Source: Candidatus Bathyarchaeales archaeon
GTDB lineage: Archaea > Thermoproteota > Bathyarchaeia > Bathyarchaeales > Bathycorpusculaceae
Length of the DNA: 64,000 bases
Reading direction: 5' to 3'
Assembly: GCA_049717905.1 (NCBI GenBank)
Contig: JBNASL010000001.1
Location: forward strand, 7,987 to 71,986
A model generated the notes under the pieces. The model was given only the letters and a program-made list of their open reading frames with translations, did no database searches and was not told where the DNA came from. The position numbers and the translations under genes are program-made. This document shows, one piece after another, positions 3,174-43,407 of the stretch (position 1 is the stretch's first letter; every line of letters begins with the position of its first letter).

Positions 3174-3270
3174 TTCAATTCACTTCTGAAATGGTTCTAG
3201 CAGCCTTTAAACTCTCTTCTGCATAATGTTTATTAATTGTTGCCTTGTTTTGGGTTTGAAAGGGATTGTT

Positions 3271-4047
3271 ATGTTAATTGTTCAGATTTCAGATGTTCAC
3301 TGTGGTCCCATGTTTGATGACGGTAAATTCCGCGCTGCGATAGATGAAATTAACGCTTTGTCGCCTGACGCTGTAGTGATAACTGGAGACATAACGGAGA
3401 ACGGCATCCTCTCAGAGTTTAAGATGGCAGCAGAAGAGTTCAAAAGACTGAAAACAAAAAATACAATTTATATAAGCGGAAACCACGATTACCGCGCCAC
3501 GGGCTATCTGCTTTTCAAACAGTTTTTCCCCTTCAACCAAGTCACAGAGGTAGGCGACGCGGTCATAATAGTGCTAAGCAGCGCCCGCCCAGACAGAGAC
3601 GACGGCGAAGTCGGCCACAGACAAAACCTTTGGCTGGAAAACACATTGGAAAAATATAAAGACAGAGTGAAAATTGTTGCGATACACCACCACATAATCC
3701 CAGTTCCAGACACGGGCGCAGACCAAATCACCATAGTGGACGCAGGCGACGTCCTAAGAAGCCTCGTAAAATCCAAGGCAGACCTTGTTCTATGCGGTCA
3801 CCGCCACAGACCGTGGAAATGGCAAATAGAGAATATACAGGTGGTTCACGCTGGAAGTGTTTCATGTGAAAAACTGCGGGGCTTCTTCCTCAACTCATAC
3901 AATGTAGTAGAGATTAAAGACAAAATGGTTGAGGCGAAATTGAAAATCGTCGGCGGAGACTACGTGGACTTTAAAGAAATAATCCAAAAACGTGAAATTC
4001 TTCAAGCTTCAGATGTCTCCGAATGCAGCGACTCGCTGGCAAGATGA
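3271..4047 (+). CDS. Calcineurin-like metallophosphoesterase
   Basis: Motifs ISDVHCG, GDITENG, GNHD, HHH and GHRH are present. The start was moved to the ATG at 3271 (MLIVQISDVH). Confidence 0.8.
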   Translation: MLIVQISDVHCGPMFDDGKFRAAIDEINALSPDAVVITGDITENGILSEFKMAAEEFKRLKTKNTIYISGNHDYRATGYLLFKQFFPFNQVTEVGDAVIIVLSSARPDRDDGEVGHRQNLWLENTLEKYKDRVKIVAIHHHIIPVPDTGADQITIVDAGDVLRSLVKSKADLVLCGHRHRPWKWQIENIQVVHAGSVSCEKLRGFFLNSYNVVEIKDKMVEAKLKIVGGDYVDFKEIIQKREILQASDVSECSDSLAR

Positions 4048-17399: not shown

Positions 17400-17514
17400 A
17401 ACCGTCTCCAAACTTAAGAATGTTAACACCCTTAAATACATTTTAACCTTTTAGCAAGATTAGGAAACTTCTTTTACCACAAAAGGCATTACTTGATTGA
17501 GTGACCCTTCAAAG

Positions 17515-19656
17515 ATGGAAACACAATACGTCTGCCGCCGATGCGGAGAAACCTATTCATTAAACGATTATTTGAGAAACCATTTTTGCGGAAACTGTGG
17601 AACCCTACTCATCAAAAAAGTAGCCTATGAAAGGGTGAAAGAGAAAACAGAGGTAAAAACGGAGGATCATTTTCAAGATTTAGTTAAAGAGTTTTTCCCA
17701 TACCAGAATTTTCGTCCCTTCCAGCTTAACGCCATAAAATTTGCCTACGAAACCATTAGAGATGGAAAAGTTGGCTTGCTTTCTTCTCCATGCGGTACTG
17801 GAAAATCCATTTCAGTTTTAACAGCCTTTTTTGCAGCTAGAGGACTTAACTCATCCTTGGGAAGGCTTCTAGCTTTAACTCGCACGAAAAATCAGCTTGA
17901 AATCTATTCTCGAGAACTCCAAAACATTAAGGAATACTGCGGTGTTAGCTTTTCAGCATCAATTTTTAAAAGCAAAAAAGAAATGTGTCCCCACGCTTTT
18001 GAAGATTCGAAACTTGGGGATGTAAGTTATAGGGATTTTCTTTACTACTGTAAGGGCTTAAAGAACGGCGCTTTCGGCAGAACATGTGAATATTTTGACA
18101 AAGCTTATGCCGAGTGGAAGCCAAGCTGGCACGCCTACAATGTAATCAACAAAATCAAGAAGATTGGACCTCTATTGCCAGACGAAGTTTATGGGCTATG
18201 CCGCGACGAAGGATTATGCCCTTACGAGGTTACAAAAATCTTAACAAAATATGCGGACATCGTTGTAGGCAACTACAATTATATTCTCGTGGAAGCTATC
18301 CGCGGTTCAGTTTTGGGCAAGGCGGGCATACGCGTCAGAGACATAAACTGCGTGTTCGACGAAGCCCACAGCTTGCCCTACTATGCGGCAGGAATATTAT
18401 CAGACGAGCTTTCATCAAGGTCTGTGCGTAGAGCCAGAAAAGAAGTTAAAACCTTTGAAGTTGACGATTTCGACTTTCTAGAAGCCTTACACAAAATCAT
18501 GTTTGATTTTGGGAAGAAGGTTTACAGAAATTACGGATTGGATGTGGAGCACATTGTTGAAGGAGACGCTCTGATTGGCGCTTTGGCTAACAAACTTAAG
18601 GTTGACCATAAAAAGCTTCTTGAAATCATCCATGAACTTGCCGACAAAGGTGAACAAGTTCGCCAAAAGAGAAGCGAAATGGGAAGAAGCCCGGTCTCTT
18701 ACCTTTCCCGTTGCGCAGATTTTCTCATGAACTGGACAAGCCTAACAGGTTCAAGCTATGTAAGATATGCGAAGGTTGAGGTTGACAGAGACAAAAGAAA
18801 ACAGGTAAGGCTTGGAATTAGATGCTTAGATCCGGCTTTAGCTGCAAGCGTTATCAACGAGCTCCGCTCCGCCATACTCATGTCTGGAACCCTCTGGAAC
18901 ACAGACTACTACATAGACGTTTTAGGCATAGAAAGAAACCGCTGCCAAAGCCTAGAGCTTCCAAGCCCATTCCCACCAGAGAACAGACTTATTGTTGTGG
19001 ATGAGTCGGTTACAACAAAATTTGAAAAACGTAGTGAAATCCAATGGAAAATGATTGTGGCGCACCTTAACCAAATAATCGAGAAAGTTGAAGGCAGAAT
19101 CGCTGTTTATTTCCCATCCTATGAGGTGATGCAAAAGGTTGTCAGAGAGGTAAAGAATGATTTGCCAATGCTGGTCGAGGAGAAAAGAACAAGGATTTTG
19201 GATGTGCTTAGGTTTTTGAAAGAAAACGACAAGTGCGTGGTTCTAGGCGTCGCAAGAGGAAAAATAAGCGAAGGAGTCGACATGACCCTTGAAGGTCGAA
19301 GCATGCTTTCAGCCGTAATCCTTGTCGGACTGCCTTTTCCAAAGAAAACAGAGCTTCAAACCGCTCTATACGAGTATTTTAGAGAGAAATTTGGGGAAAA
19401 AGCCATGGAATACGCAAACAACATTCCCTGCCTAAACGCTTTAGCTCAATCCGCTGGAAGACTTTTACGTAGCCCAGAGGACAGGGGAATAATAATCCTT
19501 ATGGATAGACGCGCAGCTGGGAGGTTTAGGCACATGCTTCCAAAAGAATGGAAAAACGAGTTAAAAGCCCATTACAGGATAGAGAAAATCCTTGAGAGAA
19601 TAGAGGATTTTATGGCTCAAAAAGCGATGCAAAGTCGTGGCACTTTCATTCCATAA
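17515..19656 (+). CDS. XPD/Rad3-family DNA helicase with an N-terminal zinc-ribbon extension
   Basis: Walker A SPCGTGKS and a DEAH box (VFDEAHSL) are present. Four Cys are spaced like the XPD 4Fe-4S domain (CPH, YYC, TCEY, LCPYE). The N-terminus carries CRRCG...CGNCG. Start is ATG at 17515 or TTG at 17497. Confidence 0.8.
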   Translation: METQYVCRRCGETYSLNDYLRNHFCGNCGTLLIKKVAYERVKEKTEVKTEDHFQDLVKEFFPYQNFRPFQLNAIKFAYETIRDGKVGLLSSPCGTGKSISVLTAFFAARGLNSSLGRLLALTRTKNQLEIYSRELQNIKEYCGVSFSASIFKSKKEMCPHAFEDSKLGDVSYRDFLYYCKGLKNGAFGRTCEYFDKAYAEWKPSWHAYNVINKIKKIGPLLPDEVYGLCRDEGLCPYEVTKILTKYADIVVGNYNYILVEAIRGSVLGKAGIRVRDINCVFDEAHSLPYYAAGILSDELSSRSVRRARKEVKTFEVDDFDFLEALHKIMFDFGKKVYRNYGLDVEHIVEGDALIGALANKLKVDHKKLLEIIHELADKGEQVRQKRSEMGRSPVSYLSRCADFLMNWTSLTGSSYVRYAKVEVDRDKRKQVRLGIRCLDPALAASVINELRSAILMSGTLWNTDYYIDVLGIERNRCQSLELPSPFPPENRLIVVDESVTTKFEKRSEIQWKMIVAHLNQIIEKVEGRIAVYFPSYEVMQKVVREVKNDLPMLVEEKRTRILDVLRFLKENDKCVVLGVARGKISEGVDMTLEGRSMLSAVILVGLPFPKKTELQTALYEYFREKFGEKAMEYANNIPCLNALAQSAGRLLRSPEDRGIIILMDRRAAGRFRHMLPKEWKNELKAHYRIEKILERIEDFMAQKAMQSRGTFIP

Positions 19657-34979: not shown

Positions 34980-35813
34980 ATGAAGGAAACATTCAAAATA
35001 GCCTTGGCACAGATAAGCTGTCGAAGAGGAGACAAAAAAGCAAACCTGCATAAAATGGAAGAATATGCAAAAAAGGCGAAAAAACAAAACGCGGAGCTTG
35101 TGGTGTTTCCGGAACTTTCGTTAACAGGATATACTGTGCGAGATGAAATCTACGAGCTAGCGGAAAAAATACCAGGCCCCTCAATAAGCATTATTGAAAA
35201 AATGACTAGAGAAATCGGCATACACGTAATTTTCGGAATGCCAGAACTCAGCGAAAAAACAGAGGCAACAATTTACAACTCCGCTGTCCTAATAGCTCCA
35301 GACGGCTTTATCGGGAAATACCGTAAAATGTATCTGCCAACCCACAGCGTTTTTGAAGAGAAACGTTATTTTAGGCCAGGATATGATGCTGGTGCTTTTG
35401 AAACTGAGCTGGGCAAAATAGGCTTACTCATATGCTATGACATCTTCTTTCCAGAGGCAAGCCGACTGACACGTCTAGAAGGGGCAAAACTTATAGTTTG
35501 CATTTCAGCTTCACCATCCGTCCGCAGAACATACTTTGAAACCTTAACAACTGCAAGAGCCATAGAAAACGGAGCCTTTTTGGCATATGTTAACCTCGTA
35601 GGCGTAGAAGATGGACTGCAGTTTTGGGGAGGAAGCAGGCTCATCAGTCCAAACGGAAATATTATTGCAAAAGCAGGACATGACGAGGAAAACCTTGTTG
35701 TCGGCGAGGTCAACTACGCTGACATTAGACCTGTGGAAATTTTTGTTCCCACATTGAGAGACTTACGCCCAGAAATTTTCGAAAAATTGAAGATAAAAAC
35801 TGAAACGCTTTAG
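34980..35813 (+). CDS. Carbon-nitrogen hydrolase (nitrilase superfamily)
   Basis: 277 aa. The Glu-Lys-Cys triad context is present: VVFPELSLTGY, YRKMYLP, LICYDIFFPE. Confidence 0.85.
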   Translation: MKETFKIALAQISCRRGDKKANLHKMEEYAKKAKKQNAELVVFPELSLTGYTVRDEIYELAEKIPGPSISIIEKMTREIGIHVIFGMPELSEKTEATIYNSAVLIAPDGFIGKYRKMYLPTHSVFEEKRYFRPGYDAGAFETELGKIGLLICYDIFFPEASRLTRLEGAKLIVCISASPSVRRTYFETLTTARAIENGAFLAYVNLVGVEDGLQFWGGSRLISPNGNIIAKAGHDEENLVVGEVNYADIRPVEIFVPTLRDLRPEIFEKLKIKTETL

Positions 35814-35911
35814 GATTCACATCAGCACTAAATCACAGTTAAATCACATACCCTTTGAGACATCACAGGAACCCCCAATTTTATGGAGAATCTTCAAATA
35901 ACCGCGTATCA

Positions 35912-35921
35912 TCACGCGTGA
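35912..35921. repeat. Perfect 10-bp palindrome TCACGCGTGA within a TCACA-core motif array
   Basis: Read directly. It is flanked by TCACA/TGTGA cores at about 35818, 35834, 35845, 35864, 35935 and 35950. Confidence 0.8.
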
Positions 35922-36044
35922 CTTAAACGTGATATGTGATATCGCACGATCACAATTATTAATACGTCGCAACAAGCTCGCCTAAACCTCTCTCCTAAGA
36001 GCATATTAATCTTCATAAGGCAACTAAATTTAGAATTCAAGCGT

Positions 36045-36070
36045 CACAAAAAGGACACTTCCTTTTTGTG
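36045..36070. repeat. Perfect hairpin-forming inverted repeat (11-bp stem, 4-nt loop)
   Basis: CACAAAAAGGA-cact-TCCTTTTTGTG, read directly in the 548-bp non-coding gap. Confidence 0.85.
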
Positions 36071-36361
36071 CAAATTCTTTCTACAAGGCTAAAGCCTCTG
36101 AACACCTGAGAAAAACATTTTATCCTAGTTGTAGGTCAGGTTAAAATCTTGCAGAAGCATATTGTCTTAGATGTTTAAATCGGTAAATATCAACTTTTTT
36201 AACCTAAAATTGTAAAAAAAAGAATTTAAGGCGGCGCTTTTACATTTTTAGTTGTAATTTTTCCTTTTAACATGTTTAAAGCTCGAACTTTAATATGATG
36301 TTCTCCGATAACCTTTAAATTCTCTTGTATACAAAAATGTATCCATTGAAGGGAACACGGG

Positions 36362-36850
36362 ATGCAAAAAATGAAGCTAAAAGAAAATGTCCAAATATGG
36401 CTAAAAAAGTCTTTAGAAGACCCCATTGTAAAAATATTGGCTAAAACAAGTCACTTAACAAAAACTCAGCTTGAAACACTGATAATTAATATTTTAGCAG
36501 AAAATATTGCGGGTAAACCACTTAAATATGAAGAAAAAGCCAGATTACGGCTAACAAAGGCAAAAATAAGCCGCGGAGCTTTTAACAGAACCTTAAAACA
36601 GGCTGAAGAAAACGTCATAAAATCAATCTACACGGTACTACTTTTAGGATACTTGGGAATCTTTGAAAGCACAACTTTAGACCCATATATCGAAATATCA
36701 AACAAACTACAAGAATATGTAGAAGCACACAAGAACATGCCAATAAGCAATGCACAATTGGAGGAACAGGTAAAATTCCTAAAAATTCTGCGAGAGGGGC
36801 TTGAAACAAGCCTAAAACAGTTGGCAAATCCTTCGGAAGGGCTTCCGTGA
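36362..36850 (+). CDS. Hypothetical protein with a Tfx/sigma70-region-4-like HTH (tentative)
   Basis: 162 aa. LTKTQLETL ... ISRGAFNRTLKQAEENVIKSIYT resembles the Tfx/LuxR-type HTH layout. There is no other recognisable domain. Confidence 0.35.
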   Translation: MQKMKLKENVQIWLKKSLEDPIVKILAKTSHLTKTQLETLIINILAENIAGKPLKYEEKARLRLTKAKISRGAFNRTLKQAEENVIKSIYTVLLLGYLGIFESTTLDPYIEISNKLQEYVEAHKNMPISNAQLEEQVKFLKILREGLETSLKQLANPSEGLP

Positions 36851-36856
36851 CGTCAC
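36847..36856. repeat. Palindrome GTGACGTCAC (TGACGTCA core) overlapping the stop codon of the 162-aa gene
   Basis: Read directly. The second TGACGTCA copy is at 37000-37007. Confidence 0.8.
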
Positions 36857-36990
36857 AAATCACAAAATAGTTAAGCAGAGTCACTGCTTGTGGCAAGCCA
36901 AAACTCAAAGAAAAAGGCCTAAAGGCTAAAAAGCAACTTTAAGAAGGCGTTTCAGCAGTGCGTGTTTTTATCATAGTAAGAAAAGATTAT

Positions 36991-37007
36991 TGTGATGTGT
37001 GACGTCA
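36991..37007 (+). promoter_or_regulatory. Candidate operator: TGTGATGTGTGA repeat copy 1, fused to the TGACGTCA palindrome
   Basis: TGTGATGTGTGACGTCA lies about 35 bp upstream of a TATA-like TTTAAATT (37039-37046) preceding the 37126 gene. Confidence 0.5.
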
Positions 37008-37061
37008 TAATGCCATCATGGGTGGGAATACCATAATCTTTAAATTTTGTTTATGATAGAC

Positions 37062-37076
37062 TGTGATGTGTGATGT
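37062..37076 (+). promoter_or_regulatory. Candidate operator: TGTGATGTGTGA repeat copy 2
   Basis: TGTGATGTGTGATGT lies about 20 bp downstream of the TATA-like box, where the transcription start would be expected. Confidence 0.5.
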
Positions 37077-37125
37077 AACATGACGAAATCACGCAAGCAC
37101 TACATGAGAACGCGAGGGATCTTGC

Positions 37126-37839
37126 ATGAGTGAAGTGATATTGTTTCTTGCAGTGGTTTTCTTCGCTGTGGCAGTTGGTGCCGCTTTTGAGTATTACAGG
37201 CATATTGTGAAGGTTAAGGTGGAGTATGAGAAAGCTAAGAGAGCTTTTAATGATGTTATTTTAAGCTTCAGTAGAGAGCTTAAGCGCACTGCTGAAACAT
37301 TGGGATCCGTCTCCTACAAGGTTGATGCAGCATCTTCAAGGAGCAGTGAAGCCCTTAAAAGGGTGGAGAATCTTGAGGGGAAACTCGGCGGTTTAGAGGC
37401 AAAAGTCAGTTTAACACCAGAAGAATTGCAGAAGTTGCAGGCGAAACTAGATGAAGTGGAACAAAAGACCCGTGATATTGTTGTATCACAGGAGAATTTA
37501 ACAGCTAAGGTAGCGTCTTTAGAGGAACAAGCACAAAAATTGTCGATGGTTCCTGAGCCCAGTGTCGAAGCAGTTATACCTATAAAGCGGGAAAAAGCGT
37601 TGGCGCCTCTGACGGAAACAGAGTTGGCTGTGCTTGAAATGTTGGCTGCAGAGGGTCCCAAAACCGCGCCTGAGATTAAGGATAGAATTAAACTCAGTAG
37701 GGAGCATACTGCTAGATTGATGAAGAAGCTTTATGAGGAAGGCTATTTGGAGAGGGATTCGAGTAAGATTCCTTTCAAATATGGGGTTAAGAAAGAAATG
37801 GAGAAGCTTTTAAAGAAAACAGAGGCTGGCGCAGCATAA
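37126..37839 (+). CDS. Membrane-anchored coiled-coil protein with a C-terminal MarR-like winged-helix domain
   Basis: 237 aa. Has an N-terminal TM helix VILFLAVVFFAVAVGAAF, a long heptad-like region (LEGKLGGLEAKVSL...LQAKLDEVEQK...) and a C-terminal wHTH LTETELAVLEMLAAEGPKTAPEIKDRIKLSREHTARLMKKLYEEGYLER. Confidence 0.55.
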   Translation: MSEVILFLAVVFFAVAVGAAFEYYRHIVKVKVEYEKAKRAFNDVILSFSRELKRTAETLGSVSYKVDAASSRSSEALKRVENLEGKLGGLEAKVSLTPEELQKLQAKLDEVEQKTRDIVVSQENLTAKVASLEEQAQKLSMVPEPSVEAVIPIKREKALAPLTETELAVLEMLAAEGPKTAPEIKDRIKLSREHTARLMKKLYEEGYLERDSSKIPFKYGVKKEMEKLLKKTEAGAA

Positions 37840-37842
37840 TAG

Positions 37843-39378
37843 CTAAAGTTGAAGAGAATGTTGTTGTCTTAAGCTTTTTAGTCGGTTTTCCATTTCGGAA
37901 ATGCTTGAGGATGAAGGAAACTCATAGTCTTTTGTTACCCTGTTGAGGTATTCTGGATAGTGGGTTACTTTTATTGGCACAGCGAATCTTATTTTTGGTT
38001 CAGAAATCAACAGGGCTTCGCCTACGTCTAGCATTTTAATTTCTGTGTCGCTGTATTCCAAATAAGGAGTGCTTTCAGTTAGGTAAGCTCGGTCTCTCCG
38101 CAGTTCTGTTTTCATGATGATTTTTGTCCATAACTCGGCGAAAACATCAAAGTTTATCCTTGAAGGCCTTGGGGTTACAGCGTTAAGTCCTACGCGGTAT
38201 TTTCTATATGTTAGTGCAATGTCTGAAAATATTGTCCTAGGCTTGTTTGGATCCAAGAATTCATGGGCCTCTTCAAGGGTTATTAAAAGCGTTGGAAGTT
38301 TCAGCCATTCCTCATAGTTTTCCTCCCACATATGCTTGTAATGGTTTGCAACAGCAGAAGCGGTGAGACACACAATCCTGTTTTGCTCCTCTGAACCCAT
38401 TCCAGAAATGTCCACAAGACAGGTTACGCCTCGGCATATGTTTTGGACAACGCTGTCGATGAAACTATAGTCAGAAGCAGGGAAAAGCTCTCCAGACAAC
38501 GATGAAAGCTTCAGCATTAAAGCCTCAATGACATGTTTCATTTTATAGTCAGCCAAGCGGCCTACACCAGCGTATCCTTCAGCACTGTAAGCTTCTCTAG
38601 CCTTCTCAATCCAAACTTTGCCTAGTTTCGCGTAAAGTTTCTTAGCAAGCCTCCATTGAGGGTAACCTATGTCGGGAAACATCATTACAAGCTTGCCAGG
38701 AGTGACCGTGTATAATCCTATAACCATCTTTCTGTCTTTGGGCGAATAATACTGAACTTTAGTAGGAAATAATGGGTGATCTTTAAGGCCTTTCTGGGGG
38801 CTGATTCCCTTTCCCTCAAGGAGTTGACCTGCAAAATCGAAGATTAGGGCTACTGTTTTTGGGCTGTTGTCGATGATTTGGGCGTTTAGGATGAGTTCAG
38901 CGTTTGTTTTACCTGAGCCCGTCATTCCAAACATGCCCATCATCAGCGGAATAGCCTCAATGTTTACACCCACAGAACCTAAGAGTTGGTCTCCTGATCG
39001 GAGGCGCCCAATTTCCAGCACTCCGGAAAGCTTGAGAACAGAGCCATCTTCTTCGCTTATGGTGTAAACTTTGTCACCGTAGTTTGGGTTAAATGTTGGA
39101 GAGCGCGCCTTTTCTTTACTTTTTTCCAGAAAGAGAACTGCCTCTACACTTCTGAAACTTGAGTAAGGTCCAAACGCTTCCTTGCCGTCAGCCTCTCGAA
39201 GTTGCTCAATGGTTTTTAGTGTGGAGCTACTTTGAGCATTAACGACCCTTGCGTAAAAGTTTCTTTCGCCAGAATCGATGCGCACAATCTGCCCAAAAGA
39301 AAGTGCCACTTGAGAATTTAGAAAGAAAAGCACTTTGTCCCCTTCCGTTCCACACACAAACCCTATTGGTTCACTCAT
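37843..39378 (-). CDS. herA: HerA-like (FtsK-HerA superfamily, DUF87-type) ATPase
   Basis: 511 aa. Has an N-terminal barrel-like segment (GQIVRIDSGERNFYARVVN), Walker A GMFGMTGSGKT and Walker B LLITLEEAHEF. Its start overlaps the NurA-like stop by 8 nt. Confidence 0.75.
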   Translation of the reverse strand: MSEPIGFVCGTEGDKVLFFLNSQVALSFGQIVRIDSGERNFYARVVNAQSSSTLKTIEQLREADGKEAFGPYSSFRSVEAVLFLEKSKEKARSPTFNPNYGDKVYTISEEDGSVLKLSGVLEIGRLRSGDQLLGSVGVNIEAIPLMMGMFGMTGSGKTNAELILNAQIIDNSPKTVALIFDFAGQLLEGKGISPQKGLKDHPLFPTKVQYYSPKDRKMVIGLYTVTPGKLVMMFPDIGYPQWRLAKKLYAKLGKVWIEKAREAYSAEGYAGVGRLADYKMKHVIEALMLKLSSLSGELFPASDYSFIDSVVQNICRGVTCLVDISGMGSEEQNRIVCLTASAVANHYKHMWEENYEEWLKLPTLLITLEEAHEFLDPNKPRTIFSDIALTYRKYRVGLNAVTPRPSRINFDVFAELWTKIIMKTELRRDRAYLTESTPYLEYSDTEIKMLDVGEALLISEPKIRFAVPIKVTHYPEYLNRVTKDYEFPSSSSISEMENRLKSLRQQHSLQL

Positions 39379-40384
39379 GTTCTACCCACTCCCATTCAAA
39401 CGCATGTTTTACTCCGTGAAGCTCGTCTGGGAAACTACAAGCCAATTCTTCAAGGCGAAGTAAATCCATTAAGCCCTCTTCCTTAAGAAAACTCTCAACT
39501 TTATCGTGGTAATGGAGAAGCATGACATCTGACGGACGGGAAAAATGATGGGCAAGGAACAGAGGAATAGGATATCCGAGACATCTTGGATCTTCAGAAA
39601 TGAAAGTTAATGGGGAAAGAATTTCAACAACATTGCCGGCTGTCAAATATTCCATTATGTCGCAGCGAAAAATTCGTCCACTGTCCTGGCATAATTTTAC
39701 CACGGAAACCTCACCGTAAAGGTGTTCATCTTTATTCGGTTCTTTAATGGATGGGTAAACCCAGAGGGGATAAGGGGAAAGCCCGCTAACTACAGCTATG
39801 AAATCTCTGCCTTTTTCGTCATGTAAAATTGGAGAGCTCTTACTTATAGCGAGGAGGCATATTGCCCTTTCTTTACATTCATCGTAAAGGGAAACTCTAA
39901 ACTTTCTTTCGCCTCCGAAGTAGCTTCCCCCATCTAAAAGGACATAATCATTAGGGGTATGTCCGTCGTATACATCTTTAAATTTCTCATGTATAATTCT
40001 TAGAGCCGCCTGGCTTTCCAATTCTAACCTATAATCTTCAAGGATTCTACGACGGACATGGATATCCCCAACAGCAGAATACAACCTCTCCTCGTAACCC
40101 CATTTTACATCATGACCCTTAACTAGGGCGTATGATGGCCGCATAAGGTAAATGCCCCAATTATTAGCCCTCTTCAGCGTTCTTGTCGAACAGTCCACAG
40201 CCAAAAATTGTCCTTCGTAATTACTTACTTTTCTAAGAGGCTTTATCCGCAGAGGATCTGGCTTAACTGAAATTGCGGGCTCTCCTCGTAGCTCCATAGA
40301 ACTTGCAACACGCCCTTTTTCAACATAGGTTTTAAGTTTCTCTCTAATATTTGTCAAGTCTTCCATTATTTTAGCATCCATCAT
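39371..40384 (-). CDS. nurA: NurA-like nuclease (RNase H-like fold)
   Basis: 337 aa. Candidate catalytic blocks occur in NurA order: FLAVDCST (Asp), RLELESQ (Glu), YVLLDGGSY (Asp), LLAISKSS, FLAHHFS (His). Translationally coupled to the HerA-like gene. Confidence 0.6.
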   Translation of the reverse strand: MMDAKIMEDLTNIREKLKTYVEKGRVASSMELRGEPAISVKPDPLRIKPLRKVSNYEGQFLAVDCSTRTLKRANNWGIYLMRPSYALVKGHDVKWGYEERLYSAVGDIHVRRRILEDYRLELESQAALRIIHEKFKDVYDGHTPNDYVLLDGGSYFGGERKFRVSLYDECKERAICLLAISKSSPILHDEKGRDFIAVVSGLSPYPLWVYPSIKEPNKDEHLYGEVSVVKLCQDSGRIFRCDIMEYLTAGNVVEILSPLTFISEDPRCLGYPIPLFLAHHFSRPSDVMLLHYHDKVESFLKEEGLMDLLRLEELACSFPDELHGVKHAFEWEWVEHE

Positions 40385-40432
40385 AATTGTCCCATGCCGA
40401 TGTATTAATTAACAAATAGGAGAGAAGGCTTA

Positions 40433-40858
40433 TCAAGTTATTTGCTGCTTTATTGTGGGATTTGGAATGCTTGGTGCAATCCTATATTTTAATCTGTTTG
40501 AATTACCAGCCTTAACAAGCATTCCTTTATGTGTCATTCTAAAAAGGTAAGTTGCCACCGTGCTGAGGTTTATCGGTTCCTTAAACTCACGCTCATAAAC
40601 CTCTTGAACCTCCTTTGAAGAAAACCAAGCAACAGGAAAATACTTTTGAATCAAAAATCTCAGCCTATCATATTTTGAATCTTCATTACTCATAATGTTA
40701 ATGCTTGGATTGGTTTCACTACTGGAAACACCGCCTAACAATTCAACCAAATCTAATATGCGAAGTGCTTTATCCCGCGTCACTTGACCCTCAAAGGCTA
40801 TGCTATACTTGTTGCCTTCACTGTCAAATACTTCAATACGCATTTTCTTCGCTGGCAT
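40433..40858 (-). CDS. Small protein with a C-terminal winged-helix-like domain; first gene of the NurA/HerA-like operon
   Basis: 141 aa. FSSKEVQEVYEREFKEPINLSTVATYLFRMTHKGMLVKAGNSNRLKYRI looks like helix-turn-helix plus wing. The N-terminal half is unassigned. Confidence 0.45.
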   Translation of the reverse strand: MPAKKMRIEVFDSEGNKYSIAFEGQVTRDKALRILDLVELLGGVSSSETNPSINIMSNEDSKYDRLRFLIQKYFPVAWFSSKEVQEVYEREFKEPINLSTVATYLFRMTHKGMLVKAGNSNRLKYRIAPSIPNPTIKQQIT

Positions 40859-40880
40859 CTAAAGTTAAGCACCTTCGGTT

Positions 40881-40903
40881 CTTCACAACTTTACACTTCA
40901 CAA
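40881..40903 (+). promoter_or_regulatory. Direct repeat CTTCACAA x2 (15-bp period) between a TATA-like box and the start of the 141-aa gene
   Basis: Copies at 40881-40888 and 40896-40903. A TATA-like AATTTAAAGG (minus sense) lies at about 40941-40950. Confidence 0.45.
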
Positions 40904-41054
40904 GTTATAGCTGTTACGGTGAATAAGAGAAAATTAAAACCTTTAAATTAGGCATTTTAAGGAAAAAGAAGGGAAAATTTCCATTTTTTTAAAATACAAG
41001 CTTCACATCTTATCCAAAATAGCTTTGTGAAAAAAAGAAAATAATATTTTGTTG

Positions 41055-41078
41055 TTTCCAGTAGAAACTAAGGGGTGG
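41055..41078 (+). promoter_or_regulatory. Origin recognition box (ORB)-like element 1
   Basis: TTTCCAGTAGAAACTAAGGGGTGG has a TCCA-N-GAAA dyad plus a G-string, nearly identical to element 3. Confidence 0.7.
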
Positions 41079-41293
41079 CTTATTCACATCTTAAAGACAT
41101 AAAAAAGTTAACGATTATGGAAAAGAGGTTTAAAAAGCGACAAAAACAAATCAACTTCACATGGTGTTTGCAAATTGTGAAAGTGAATAAGCTATCACAT
41201 TTTCTTTTTGAATTTAAAGTGCTGGCTAAAACAATATAAAATCATTGGAAAAATGATGAAAATATATAGTTGCAGAGAAAGAGTCACCCCATG

Positions 41294-41320
41294 TTTTCCA
41301 CTGGAAAAGCAAGAGGGGAC
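41294..41320 (+). promoter_or_regulatory. ORB-like element 2 (palindromic core TTCCACTGGAA)
   Basis: TTTTCCACTGGAAAAGCAAGAGGGGAC. A CACCCC lies just upstream, so a G-string is present on both strands. Confidence 0.6.
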
Positions 41321-41460
41321 TTTTAATTTTAAAATAATATGTTGTAACAATTTTCTTATTTTATTTAGATTTTTTTACAGTAAGATTTTTGTTCTTTAAA
41401 CTGTTCTTACCTTTCAGAGTATATTTCTTTTAGATAGAAATCACAATTTTAACTTCTTAC
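41321..41460. other. Candidate duplex-unwinding element (AT-rich tract) of oriC
   Basis: By hand count there are about 26 G/C in 140 nt, roughly 80% A+T. It lies between ORB-like elements 2 and 3. Confidence 0.5.
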
Positions 41461-41468
41461 TTCAGAGA

Positions 41469-41493
41469 TTTCCAGTTGAAACTTAGGGGTGCC
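41469..41493 (+). promoter_or_regulatory. ORB-like element 3
   Basis: TTTCCAGTTGAAACTTAGGGGTGCC lies about 150 bp upstream of orc1/cdc6. Confidence 0.7.
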
Positions 41494-41642
41494 TCCCTTT
41501 TCCTTTTTTGCATACTAAGTCTCCTACACTTTTTAGAATTTTTAGGCTAATTATTCACTTTTCTGTATGATATGCCTTATTTTGTTAGCCTTAAAGTAAG
41601 ACATTACCTCCGCTTCAAACTTAAAAAGGGAGAAATGGACCA

Positions 41643-42893
41643 ATGGACAACGAAAATATCCTTGACGAAGTTTTCAATAAATTTTTCACTAATACAAGTA
41701 TTTTTAGAGATAGGGAGGTCCTTCGTCACGATTACTTACCTGAAAGGCTACCTCATCGTGAGGAACAGATTAAACATCTTGGGGAGGTAGTTGCTCCAGT
41801 TCTAAAGGGTGCGAGGTGTTCAAACATTTTTGTGTATGGGAAAACTGGAACGGGAAAGACTGCAGTAACAAAATATGTGCTGAACAGATTGGAGGCTAAG
41901 GCAAAAGAAATTAACGCGCCTGTTGACTTTTGTTATGTCAATTGTCGCTTGGCGGGTACCGAATATCGCATTCTCTCCAGTTTATGTCAGAAGGTTCGAC
42001 TTTTTGTTCCCTTTACTGGTTTATCTGTTGGAGAAGTGTTTGATAGGTTTAGGAAAGGCTTAGATGAACTGAAAACGATTTTTATGGTGGTCCTAGATGA
42101 AGTAGACGCCCTAGTAAAGGCTAGAAGCGACATCCTTCTATATGAGCTTACGAGGATTAATGAGATGTTGTCCCACAGCAAAGTTTCAATTATTGGAATT
42201 TCCAACGACTTGAGGCTTAAGGAATTTCTTGATCCGCGGGTTTTAAGCTCCCTTAGCGAGGAGGAAATCGTTTTTAGACCATATGATGCAAGCGAATTAA
42301 GAAATATTCTTTTCGAACGTGCACAAGTGGCCCTCCGTGAAGGGGCTTTAAGCGAAGGAGCCTTAAGCCTCTGTGCAGCTTTGGCAGCAGCTGAACATGG
42401 TGATGCTCGACGAGCTTTGGATTTGCTTCGGGTTGCTGGTGAGGTTGCGGAGCGTAGGGGTGCGAGTATTATAAACGAAGAGCATGTTAGAGAGGCGGAG
42501 AAACTTATTGAACATAACCGTGTTGTGGAAGCTTTGGCAAACCTAACTTTACATTCAAAGCTTGTGATTTTGAGTGTATTTCAAATGGTTAAGGCAAATG
42601 GTTATCGCGCAGTGACAGGTGAAATATATGAAGTTTATAATGAGCTCTGCGGAGAATTAGCGGTAACTCCATTAACGCAGCGGCGTGTAAGCACTCTGGT
42701 TAATGAGCTGGACGCGTTGGGCTTGTTGAATGCACAAGTTGTAAGCATGGGGAGATATGGACGGACCAAGAAGATTCGGTTAGAGGTTACGCGTACACTT
42801 ATTAGAGAAGCATTCTCTAATGATGCTAGGCTTGGGCGCCTGATTGATTATGACCCTAAATGTCTTTCAAAAAATGCAGGTTGTAGGGATTGA
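41643..42893 (+). CDS. cdc6: Orc1/Cdc6 replication initiator
   Basis: 416 aa. Contains LPHREEQIKHL, Walker A GKTGTGKT, Walker B VVLDEVD, sensor motifs and a C-terminal winged helix. Confidence 0.95.
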   Translation: MDNENILDEVFNKFFTNTSIFRDREVLRHDYLPERLPHREEQIKHLGEVVAPVLKGARCSNIFVYGKTGTGKTAVTKYVLNRLEAKAKEINAPVDFCYVNCRLAGTEYRILSSLCQKVRLFVPFTGLSVGEVFDRFRKGLDELKTIFMVVLDEVDALVKARSDILLYELTRINEMLSHSKVSIIGISNDLRLKEFLDPRVLSSLSEEEIVFRPYDASELRNILFERAQVALREGALSEGALSLCAALAAAEHGDARRALDLLRVAGEVAERRGASIINEEHVREAEKLIEHNRVVEALANLTLHSKLVILSVFQMVKANGYRAVTGEIYEVYNELCGELAVTPLTQRRVSTLVNELDALGLLNAQVVSMGRYGRTKKIRLEVTRTLIREAFSNDARLGRLIDYDPKCLSKNAGCRD

Positions 42894-43407
42894 GGATGGA
42901 AGTTTTAAAAAAGGAGTTACTAAAAAGGCGCTTCTTGTAGCAGTACTCTTCAAAGGATTGGAAATTGAAAATGTAAATTTTGCAAAGATAGAAGTTGACG
43001 GTTTAGATGCAACAGAAAAAATTGTTAAAATCCTAAATGAATGGAAATTTGATGCAGTTATGCTTGCTGGAGTTTCTTTTGCAGGATTCAACATCATTGA
43101 CCCTAAGGTTCTCTTTAAGAAATTTGGAAAGCCCGTAATCATTATTTTGCGAACGAAACCAGACAATAAAGCGATAAAGCGTGCTCTTCATGCCCATTTC
43201 AAGGATTGGCAAATCCGCTGGAGCGTATTTGAGAAATTAGGCCCCATTCGAAGAGTAAAGGCTTTAGCTGAAGAAAATCCCCTCTACTTTGAAGCCTTGG
43301 GTGCGGATGCCCAGTGGACTAAACACCTTATAAAAGCCTTAGCAGCTTGCGGCAGGGTACCTGAACCTCTCCGAGTTGCGCGGCTGGTTGCCCGCGGACT
43401 AAGTTAA
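42874..43407 (+). CDS. DUF99 (UPF0215) endonuclease V-like fold protein
   Basis: MQVVGIEDGSF... is a typical DUF99 N-terminus. The ATG at 42874 overlaps the orc1 3' end by about 20 nt, and the track ORF starts at 42844. Confidence 0.7.
   Translation: MQVVGIEDGSFKKGVTKKALLVAVLFKGLEIENVNFAKIEVDGLDATEKIVKILNEWKFDAVMLAGVSFAGFNIIDPKVLFKKFGKPVIIILRTKPDNKAIKRALHAHFKDWQIRWSVFEKLGPIRRVKALAEENPLYFEALGADAQWTKHLIKALAACGRVPEPLRVARLVARGLS

Follow-up and report, generated by a model that had tools for sequence, protein, structure and literature searches.

The closest described relatives of the genes studied here are the archaeal HerA-NurA complexes of Sulfolobus solfataricus (4d2i, 2ygk) and Thermococcus kodakarensis (9x1l) and the NurA of Pyrococcus furiosus (3tal), which in the PDB matched best in both sequence and fold. 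In this study we analyse a nurA-herA pair and its neighbours in 64,000 nucleotides of DNA from a Candidatus Bathyarchaeales archaeon (assembly GCA_049717905.1, contig JBNASL010000001.1, positions 7,987 to 71,986). This whole stretch is called the window below, and coordinates without a locus label refer to it. Like the archaeal complexes, the window pair shows a HerA central domain with Walker A and B motifs, the Asp/Asp/His blocks of NurA, and adjacent, coupled genes. Unlike them, it has only ~25-30% identity to the described proteins, stays far below the NCBI equivalog cut-offs and has no mre11/rad50 within 64 kb. Its gene order is p141-nurA-herA, and it is fixed beside the replication origin (oriC), together with three lineage-specific partner genes.

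In Deinococcus radiodurans and Thermus thermophilus nurA and herA likewise form a two-gene unit, but in a different domain of life. There the pair stands apart from mre11/rad50 (sbcCD), and we know of no first gene for a winged helix-turn-helix (wHTH) protein and of no origin linkage in these bacteria. Both bacterial pairs are non-essential and modulate repair (reviewed in PMC7776575). The anti-phage systems Sir2-HerA and DUF4297-HerA, like further HerA complexes of this kind in the PDB, also combine a HerA-family ATPase with a nuclease-type effector, and mobile or defence paralogues of the window clade exist. However, the window has NurA as its effector, its matches to the anti-phage proteins are weaker than those to repair HerA, and the gene is core and syntenic, not patchy. 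A replication island comprising oriC, cdc6 and PolD genes was reportedly described in Pyrococcus by Myllykallio and co-workers in 2000. The window resembles such euryarchaeal islands in that an origin flanked by origin recognition boxes (ORB) lies beside orc1/cdc6, with both PolD subunit genes nearby. As far as we know, the described euryarchaeal islands do not include a nurA-herA operon with partner wHTH genes, and in the literature we found no paper linking nurA-herA to replication islands or origins. Bathyarchaeia are abundant archaea, for which we know of no genetic system. Our literature search found no papers on their DNA repair or replication genes, and nothing relevant on HerA, NurA, Mre11 or Rad50 of Bathyarchaeota/Bathyarchaeia or on HerA-NurA at origins.

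Five genes make up the block, and all five open reading frames (ORFs) listed in a first-pass annotation of this DNA were confirmed:

36362-36850, forward strand: p162, an all-alpha orphan protein of 162 aa
37126-37839, forward strand: p237, 237 aa, with an N-terminal membrane helix, a coiled coil and a C-terminal MarR-type wHTH
37843-39378, reverse strand: herA, 511 aa, by homology the gene of a HerA-type hexameric ATPase/translocase
39371-40384, reverse strand: nurA, 337 aa, by homology the gene of a NurA-type nuclease with RNase H fold
40433-40858, reverse strand: p141, 141 aa, opening gene of the operon; a short N-terminal domain is followed by a BlaI/MecI-like wHTH at the C-terminus

We propose, with a probability of about 0.6, that the minus-strand genes encode the vertically inherited housekeeping NurA-HerA machine for DNA end processing in Bathyarchaeia, supplemented with lineage-specific partners. 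The pair is best read as the divergent version that this class has of the housekeeping repair pair, detached from mre11/rad50.

Judged from its sequence, the 511-aa protein is correctly called HerA. Its central (DUF87) domain matches Pfam PF01935 over residues 122-336 with 36.9 bits (cut-off 23.2), and its best PDB relative is the Sulfolobus repair helicase HerA 4d2i (E 9e-16 with the single sequence, 7e-23 with a profile). The Walker A motif GMTGSGKT (G151, G154, G156, K157) and the Walker B motif LLITLEEAH (364-372), both pointed out in the first-pass annotation, are real: they do not vary among 15 homologues reaching down to 47% identity and align with those of Sulfolobus HerA. The N-terminal HAS-barrel PF09378 remains below threshold (E 0.047, 14.2 bits vs 25.2), and the PDB alignment begins only at about residue 113. 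An exact-protein look-up of the window HerA returned no record. When 1.84 billion cluster representatives were searched exhaustively, there were only 470 matches, with five full-length relatives at 48-67% identity (the two that could be named are both Bathyarchaeia, one being Candidatus Hecatella) and then a gap down to ≤32% identity.

The NurA call for the 337-aa protein is supported by three independent tests. Pfam PF09376 matches with 23.2 bits (cut-off 21), in the C-terminal part only. The Asp/Glu/Asp/His blocks proposed earlier are borne out by the residues D64, E121, E123, D151 and H279, which, like D242 and D265, are invariant in 28 homologues of 58-93% identity. With hhalign we matched a profile of window-NurA homologues to one built from five NurAs, taken from where the nearest HerA relatives outside the class are encoded; four of these five loci also carry an Mre11-like gene. 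The two profiles align with a probability of 99.2% (E 7e-20, 259 columns) and their blocks are in register: AVDCS/AIDGG, LLDGG/ILxDG, FRCDI/FRVDI and GYPIPLxLAH/GYPYPLxxxH. The D64, D151 and H279 blocks also align with Sulfolobus NurA (YILMDG, GYPFPLLKAH), while the alignment of the Glu column is insecure. A single-sequence PDB search with NurA gave nothing relevant; in the profile search the sole sequence match was Sulfolobus NurA, and a weak one (E 0.17). The AlphaFold2 model is poor, with a predicted local distance difference test score (pLDDT) of 53. Its N-terminal half shows the strand-helix order of RNase H, and its top seven Foldseek matches are all NurA (E 7e-5 to 5e-4), but with TM-scores of only 0.22-0.28.

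The 8-nt overlap of nurA and herA noted before is real, and an overlap of 8 or 14 nt is found in 70 of 73 loci. This fits a stoichiometric co-translation of the two proteins, and such translational coupling would lead to both subunits being made together. By analogy with the complexes of Sulfolobus and Thermococcus, duplex DNA would be driven by an ATP-consuming HerA hexamer into a dimer of NurA, whose active site (RNase H fold, Asp/Glu/Asp/His) would digest it to give recombination substrates. Complex formation and end resection are what we infer from this homology.

Our analysis shows that the block is core and syntenic and not an island. We scanned one genome per GTDB species, found a relative in 163 of them and took the best 80, all of which are Bathyarchaeia. 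Block order could be counted in the 69 loci with sufficient flanking sequence and the position of cdc6 in 59. The same five genes stand in the same order in 66/69 eligible genomes, and cdc6 is divergent and within 1.3 kb of p141 in 59/59. The same block is also present in loci L001, L003 and L092, the last a member of the branch at 66% identity. Two megabase contigs have a common order, namely PolD-DP1, cdc6 (reverse), spacer, p141, nurA, herA, p237 and p162 (both reverse), CN-hydrolase, NAD synthase, Elf1, PcrB and PolD-DP2, with the block enclosed by the two PolD subunit genes. The conservation of HerA matches that of PolD DP2 and Cdc6: median identities to the window over the 80 species genomes are 72% for HerA, 71% for DP2, 71% for Cdc6, 70% for p162, 63% for DP1, 58% for p141, 57% for NurA and 51% for p237, and against the distant L003 they are 79% for HerA and 67% each for DP2 and Cdc6. 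HerA, NurA and p162 have hundreds to thousands of homologues, and the named proteins among the best 120 of each all come from Bathyarchaeia or an unclassified archaeal metagenome-assembled genome (MAG). On our preferred reading, the pair has in Bathyarchaeia become separated from mre11/rad50 and is fixed in an old replication neighbourhood consisting of PolD-DP1, cdc6, oriC, the block and PolD-DP2.

The first-pass annotation had described the five genes as an island and had named a gene order universal in the lineage as the finding that would speak against it. As the same order is found in nearly all eligible Bathyarchaeia genomes, the island reading is given up. A comparison of composition with the flanking core genes does not favour it either. 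G+C and third-position G+C (GC3) of herA, nurA and p237 match those genes; p162 and p141 are AT-richer, with a G+C of 0.354 and 0.378 vs 0.440 ± 0.020 for the other window genes, despite their conserved synteny. The other genes of the window are housekeeping genes such as SRP54, Pus10, XPD and PEP synthase. That the block is a domesticated remnant of a mobile element inserted beside the origin might be suggested by the low G+C of p162 and p141, and relatives in mobile contexts do exist. However, there is no integrase, transposase, repeat or tRNA at the borders of the block, the composition of herA, nurA and p237 is host-like, and with a constant position and order across the sampled species any insertion would be older than their divergence. 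Such an origin of the window copy seems extremely unlikely to us. One further locus, L065:7561-11563 on the Candidatus Bathyarchaeum chromosome CP070820.1, shows a peculiarity: nurA is apparently truncated there beside a gene for a eukaryotic-type topoisomerase IB, and p141 and cdc6 are not upstream of it, which indicates either a rearrangement breakpoint within nurA or an assembly problem.

Several points have to be held against a housekeeping repair role. The 80 loci were selected via HerA similarity, which biases the conservation figures, and the identity values flatter HerA somewhat. The orthology of HerA and NurA was assigned from similarity rank and gene context and not from a phylogenetic tree, and the same genomes could still contain a canonical second herA/nurA pair. 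HerA scores far below the NCBI equivalogs for repair HerA (NF040937, 61.7 vs 800 bits; NF040819, 45.1 vs 970), and NurA reaches 12 vs 400 bits. The AlphaFold models of NurA and p162 are both of low confidence; both were poor and came from input alignments holding Bathyarchaeia sequences only. As claimed before, there is no Mre11 or Rad50 in the 64-kb window, where a phmmer search with three Mre11-like and two Rad50 seeds remained blank. In Candidatus Hecatella (Hecatellales), the deepest relative within Bathyarchaeia in our sample with 50% identity, nurA-herA stands alone, with no p141, p237, p162 or cdc6, and consequently the accessory genes are not obligatory for the pair. The link of the three small proteins to NurA-HerA, finally, is limited to synteny and a shared TGTGA pentamer core. 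With regard to the equivalog scores, none of the ten closest full-length HerA representatives that we scanned reaches the NCBI HerA level, and the nearest relatives outside the class, including those beside Mre11-like genes, likewise fail these cut-offs. The only Metallophos ORF of the window (273 aa, 3226-4047) was considered as a candidate for Mre11 and rejected as YfcE/phosphodiesterase-like. Its best NCBIfam matches, to models for a cAMP phosphodiesterase and an 'anti-phage phosphoesterase', remain far below cut-off.

The nearest HerA relatives outside Bathyarchaeia have 25-32% identity, and in all five with readable context herA follows nurA. In four of the five a Metallophos (Mre11-like) gene lies downstream, and in the two long contigs rad50 follows. 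The order is nurA-herA-mre11-rad50 in a bacterial MAG (L086), unlike the D. radiodurans and T. thermophilus pairs, and nurA-herA-small wHTH-mre11-rad50 in a Nanoarchaeota MAG (L087); L089 and L091 have nurA-herA and then a Metallophos gene. The Metallophos proteins of L086 and L087 match Mre11 models best, below the NCBI cut-offs. In L084, a Thermoprotei MAG and the nearest relative outside the class, nurA-herA is accompanied by a convergent wHTH gene. The protein encoded there (L084:7613-8539) combines an ArsR/DUF7347 winged helix with 4-5 membrane helices and has no detectable similarity to p237. In L087 the gene between herA and mre11 (L087:3701-3997) encodes a 98-aa winged-helix protein with weak DUF7347 and HVO_A0261_N matches. 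Small wHTH genes beside herA may be a recurring theme. Homology was not detectable between p237 and the wHTH proteins beside outgroup herA, nor between p141 and a 140-aa protein upstream of L091 nurA.

A role in defence against viruses or plasmids, with HerA as ATPase and NurA as effector in the manner of Sir2-HerA or DUF4297-HerA, had also been considered before. HerA-family ATPases do occur in defence systems, PADLOC reports weak HerA matches, and two relatives of the pair are found in suggestive surroundings. In L079:2499-15797, nurA-herA has type I restriction-modification genes (HsdM, HsdS) on one side and an AbiV HEPN gene on the other; genes for an integrase, a Rad51/RadB-like protein and a family-B DNA polymerase are close by. 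In L093:740-8178, a HerA of 49-51% identity adjoins TnpB (Cas12f-like), ParB_N and RHH genes; a 332-aa gene upstream is presumably NurA, and the context resembles a plasmid or virus. These two copies show what an island copy looks like. The L079 copy is, however, an additional one, in a MAG that also bears the core block (L031), and the two HerA proteins of this MAG share 71% identity. With 68-71% to core copies, compared with 45-50% for the Hecatellales copy, the L079 HerA is closer to the core than Hecatellales is. Gene flow was therefore from chromosome to element, which speaks against descent of the window copy from a mobile element. The window copy itself is as conserved as PolD and syntenic, whereas defence genes are patchy and evolve fast. 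The anti-phage HerA models give only 21 bits (NF042943) and 18.8 bits (NF042944) against cut-offs of 800-850, and HerA of double-strand break repair outscores anti-phage HerA in both the PDB and NCBIfam. Neither a Sir2 nor a DUF4297 effector nor another known one was found among the five proteins with Pfam and PADLOC, and PADLOC gave nothing for NurA, p141 and p162. We therefore regard a defence role of the window copy as very improbable, and on synteny, conservation and composition we reject it together with the island and mobile-remnant readings.

The first-pass annotation had assigned three DNA-binding partners to the pair. Three partner genes are indeed constant, and two of them encode a wHTH. 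The description of p237 as a membrane-anchored coiled-coil wHTH protein can be upheld: Pfam MarR PF01047 matches residues 162-213 with 32.8 bits (cut-off 24.6, E 6.7e-8), there are coiled-coil matches, and the 81 orthologues typically have a hydrophobic helix at the N-terminus, after which the net charge is positive. It is conserved in 79/80 loci. The winged helix at the C-terminus of p141 is consistent but below threshold in all matches: 17/17 orthologues match Penicillinase_R (best E 1.2e-4), and a PDB profile search gives 2k4b with E 0.65. p141 was found in 71/80 loci. For p162 a Tfx-like helix-turn-helix (HTH) had been suggested, and this we could not support, since 20 orthologues yielded no Pfam HTH match and the PDB profile search was empty; the fold search was uninformative, with an AlphaFold2 model of pLDDT 50 and no Foldseek match at E <1. 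p162 has 3151 homologues; each named one among the best 120 comes from Bathyarchaeia or, labelled 'hypothetical', from an unclassified archaeal MAG. It is syntenic in 75/80 loci.

The TCACA-core motif that had been noticed in both flanks is clearly enriched. The densest 300-bp intervals for TCACA/TGTGA in the 64 kb hold 6-7 copies, compared with a mean of 0.43, and all of them fall into the three spacers that surround the block. The motif resolves into two conserved elements, a 19-bp repeat and the box TTGTGAA. The 19-bp operator-like repeat TGTGAC(A/G)TCACA(C/A)ATCACA has the form TGTGA-N2-TCACA-N2-TCACA, that is, three pentamers at a 7-bp spacing with the first one inverted. The sites are as follows:

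35829-35850, forward strand: conserved TCACA cluster far upstream of p162, within the densest TCACA interval
35928-35946, reverse strand: degenerate 19-bp repeat (2 mismatches), ~430 nt upstream of p162
36846-36864, forward strand: operator-like site 1, CGTGACGTCACAAATCACA, overlapping the p162 stop codon
36991-37009, reverse strand: operator-like site 2, whose end nearer to p237 lies ~115 nt before the ATG of that gene
37062-37080, reverse strand: operator-like site 3, whose end nearer to p237 lies ~45-50 nt before the ATG of that gene; a TTTAAAT TATA-like box stands immediately upstream of the site
40882-40903, reverse strand: tandem TTGTGAA-N8-TTGTGAA in the core promoter of the p141-nurA-herA operon, the sole exact match in the window

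With ≤2 mismatches allowed, the 19-bp repeat occurs in the window only at 35928, 36846, 36991 and 37062. The chance expectation is 0.14, and none of 100 shuffles used as control reached 4. Sites 1 and 2 form an 18-nt inverted repeat with 94% complementarity. The exact dimer TCACA-N2-TCACA is present in the p162-p237 spacer of 76/76 loci, usually three times per spacer, at a density of 8.1/kb compared with 0.028/kb elsewhere. Of the exact dimers outside this spacer, about 20 are found 0.3-1.6 kb from p162, towards the CN-hydrolase gene. Across loci, sites of the 19-bp type peak 40-60 and 100-140 nt upstream of the p237 ATG. The TTGTGAA box has a different distribution and reaches 7.05/kb in the spacers between p141 and orc1/cdc6 (the origin spacers) vs 0.96/kb overall. 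Most of 65 loci share the conserved string CTATAAsTTGTGAAgTGTAAAgcTTGTGAA, which places boxes near -45 and -30 from the p141 ATG, and a third TTGTGAA cluster is found at -300 to -350 from the p141 start. An Rfam scan of 35500-42000 detected no RNA family.

Archaeal repressors usually act at boxes between the TATA-like element and the start codon. If the minus-strand genes are the housekeeping pair, it would have gained the small wHTH protein p141 as first gene of its operon, and p141 might repress the operon via the two TTGTGAA boxes over the core promoter or, alternatively, target the complex to DNA. p162 and p237 would form a separate unit, and we infer that the 19-bp repeat, with its three copies upstream of p237, could be bound by a product of that unit. 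The 3-nt gap between the convergent herA and p237 genes, also noted before, was confirmed, and in 72/77 loci the 3' ends lie within -14 to +14 nt of each other. Since these ends abut or overlap, the two transcripts must meet. Together with the TGTGA core shared by both repeat types and the invariant synteny, this suggests that the two units are co-regulated or coordinated, without proving it.

It might also be argued that we are dealing with two unrelated neighbours: a NurA-HerA repair operon with its regulator p141, and an independent p162-p237 pair with a regulatory or membrane-signalling function that shares a conserved location and nothing more. The architectures of the repeats differ, with the triple pentamer on the p162/p237 side and the tandem box at the p141 promoter; Hecatellales and the mobile copies have nurA-herA without p162 or p237, and many unrelated housekeeping genes of the region are equally syntenic. 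The common TGTGA core and the abutting 3' ends stand against such independence, as does the membrane-anchored wHTH gene convergent on herA that is also present in the outgroup. We consider this explanation rather unlikely.

The origin itself is defined by the following features:

41643-42893, forward strand: orc1/cdc6 initiator gene, divergent from the p141-nurA-herA operon, NCBIfam NF001625 506 bits (cut-off 501)
41055-41080, forward strand: ORB box 1 of oriC, member of repeat family D1 and of inverted pair I1
41281-41307, reverse strand: ORB box 2, inverted, member of pairs I1 and I2
41469-41494, forward strand: ORB box 3, member of repeat family D1 and of inverted pair I2

The earlier call of a candidate oriC in this flank is sound because the spacer between p141 and orc1/cdc6 holds three ORB boxes and has 34% G+C, and because Orc1/Cdc6 is identified at equivalog level. 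An AT-rich stretch lies between boxes 2 and 3, and the ORB core is present in the equivalent spacer of most loci.

In view of this position it might be possible that the block serves the origin or chromosome segregation, with HerA, a pump of the FtsK-HerA superfamily, and p237, perhaps also p141 and p162, tethering, processing or moving origin-proximal DNA, and with break repair not being the main job. The block adjoins oriC/cdc6 in every locus where this could be counted, HerA is conserved to the same degree as the replication proteins, and mre11/rad50 are missing from the 64 kb. In 56 origin spacers TTCACA is enriched 7-fold and belongs to the four most enriched strings, alongside the ORB G-strings. 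p237, whose 3' end abuts herA, unites a membrane helix, a coiled coil and a wHTH, and the outgroup L084 has its unrelated membrane wHTH protein at the corresponding place. However, the adjacency may merely reflect inherited synteny in a region of stable gene order, and the Hecatellales pair is found away from cdc6 and without partners. The nearest relatives outside the class adjoin Mre11-like genes, with Rad50 in two loci. None of the 56 origin spacers contains an exact dimer of the 19-bp type, the p141 promoter holds most of the TTGTGAA boxes, which fits ordinary transcription control, and p237 has no sequence similarity to the outgroup membrane wHTH. An origin- or segregation-linked module is the alternative of greatest interest, and it appears unlikely to us. 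A bolder version would be that all five genes form one origin-proximal machine, in which the membrane-tethered p237, with p141 and p162, would recruit the HerA pump and NurA to TGTGA-core sites at or beside oriC. We think this quite doubtful. If it were true, a single machine would couple the processing of origin DNA, or the anchoring or segregation of the origin, to the membrane, and HerA-NurA would have a role outside break repair.

With a NurA-HerA end-processing machine as the preferred reading, our findings identify the pair as a very strongly conserved core function of Bathyarchaeia, which in these archaea is detached from mre11/rad50 and has a fixed place next to the replication origin. 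New are the three class-specific partner proteins and the two sharply conserved operator-like repeats, which could be tested directly in vitro. The core copy and those relatives of the pair that occur in mobile or defence surroundings offer a useful contrast for classifying HerA proteins as repair or defence proteins from sequence. Interest in the locus would increase if Bathyarchaeia prove to be without mre11/rad50, or if binding of the partners to origin DNA were demonstrated.

Some observations concern the surroundings of the block. The 548-nt non-coding stretch upstream of p162 (35814-36361) represents one of two configurations seen in 65 loci: the spacer is 0.5-0.8 kb and non-coding in 36/65 and 1.2-1.7 kb long in 28/65. 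In the three loci with called genes, the longer spacer contains an aminotransferase gene; a remnant of such a gene was looked for in the 548-nt spacer, and none was found. An alignment of 37 non-coding spacers, from the CN-hydrolase gene to p162, revealed conserved blocks at 35829-35850, at 35910-35950, where the degenerate repeat lies, and at 36327-36345 (GTATACAAAAnTGTATCCATT), directly before the p162 start. On the other side of the origin, a gene for Endo_dU (endonuclease dU, 42844-43407) shares 50 nt with the 3' end of cdc6. This gene was detected in just 20/80 species loci and represents a variable insert between cdc6 and PolD-DP1. Another DNA-repair gene of the neighbourhood encodes an XPD/Rad3-type helicase (DEAD_2, HBB, Helicase_C_2) and lies at 17497-19656, ~20 kb from the block.

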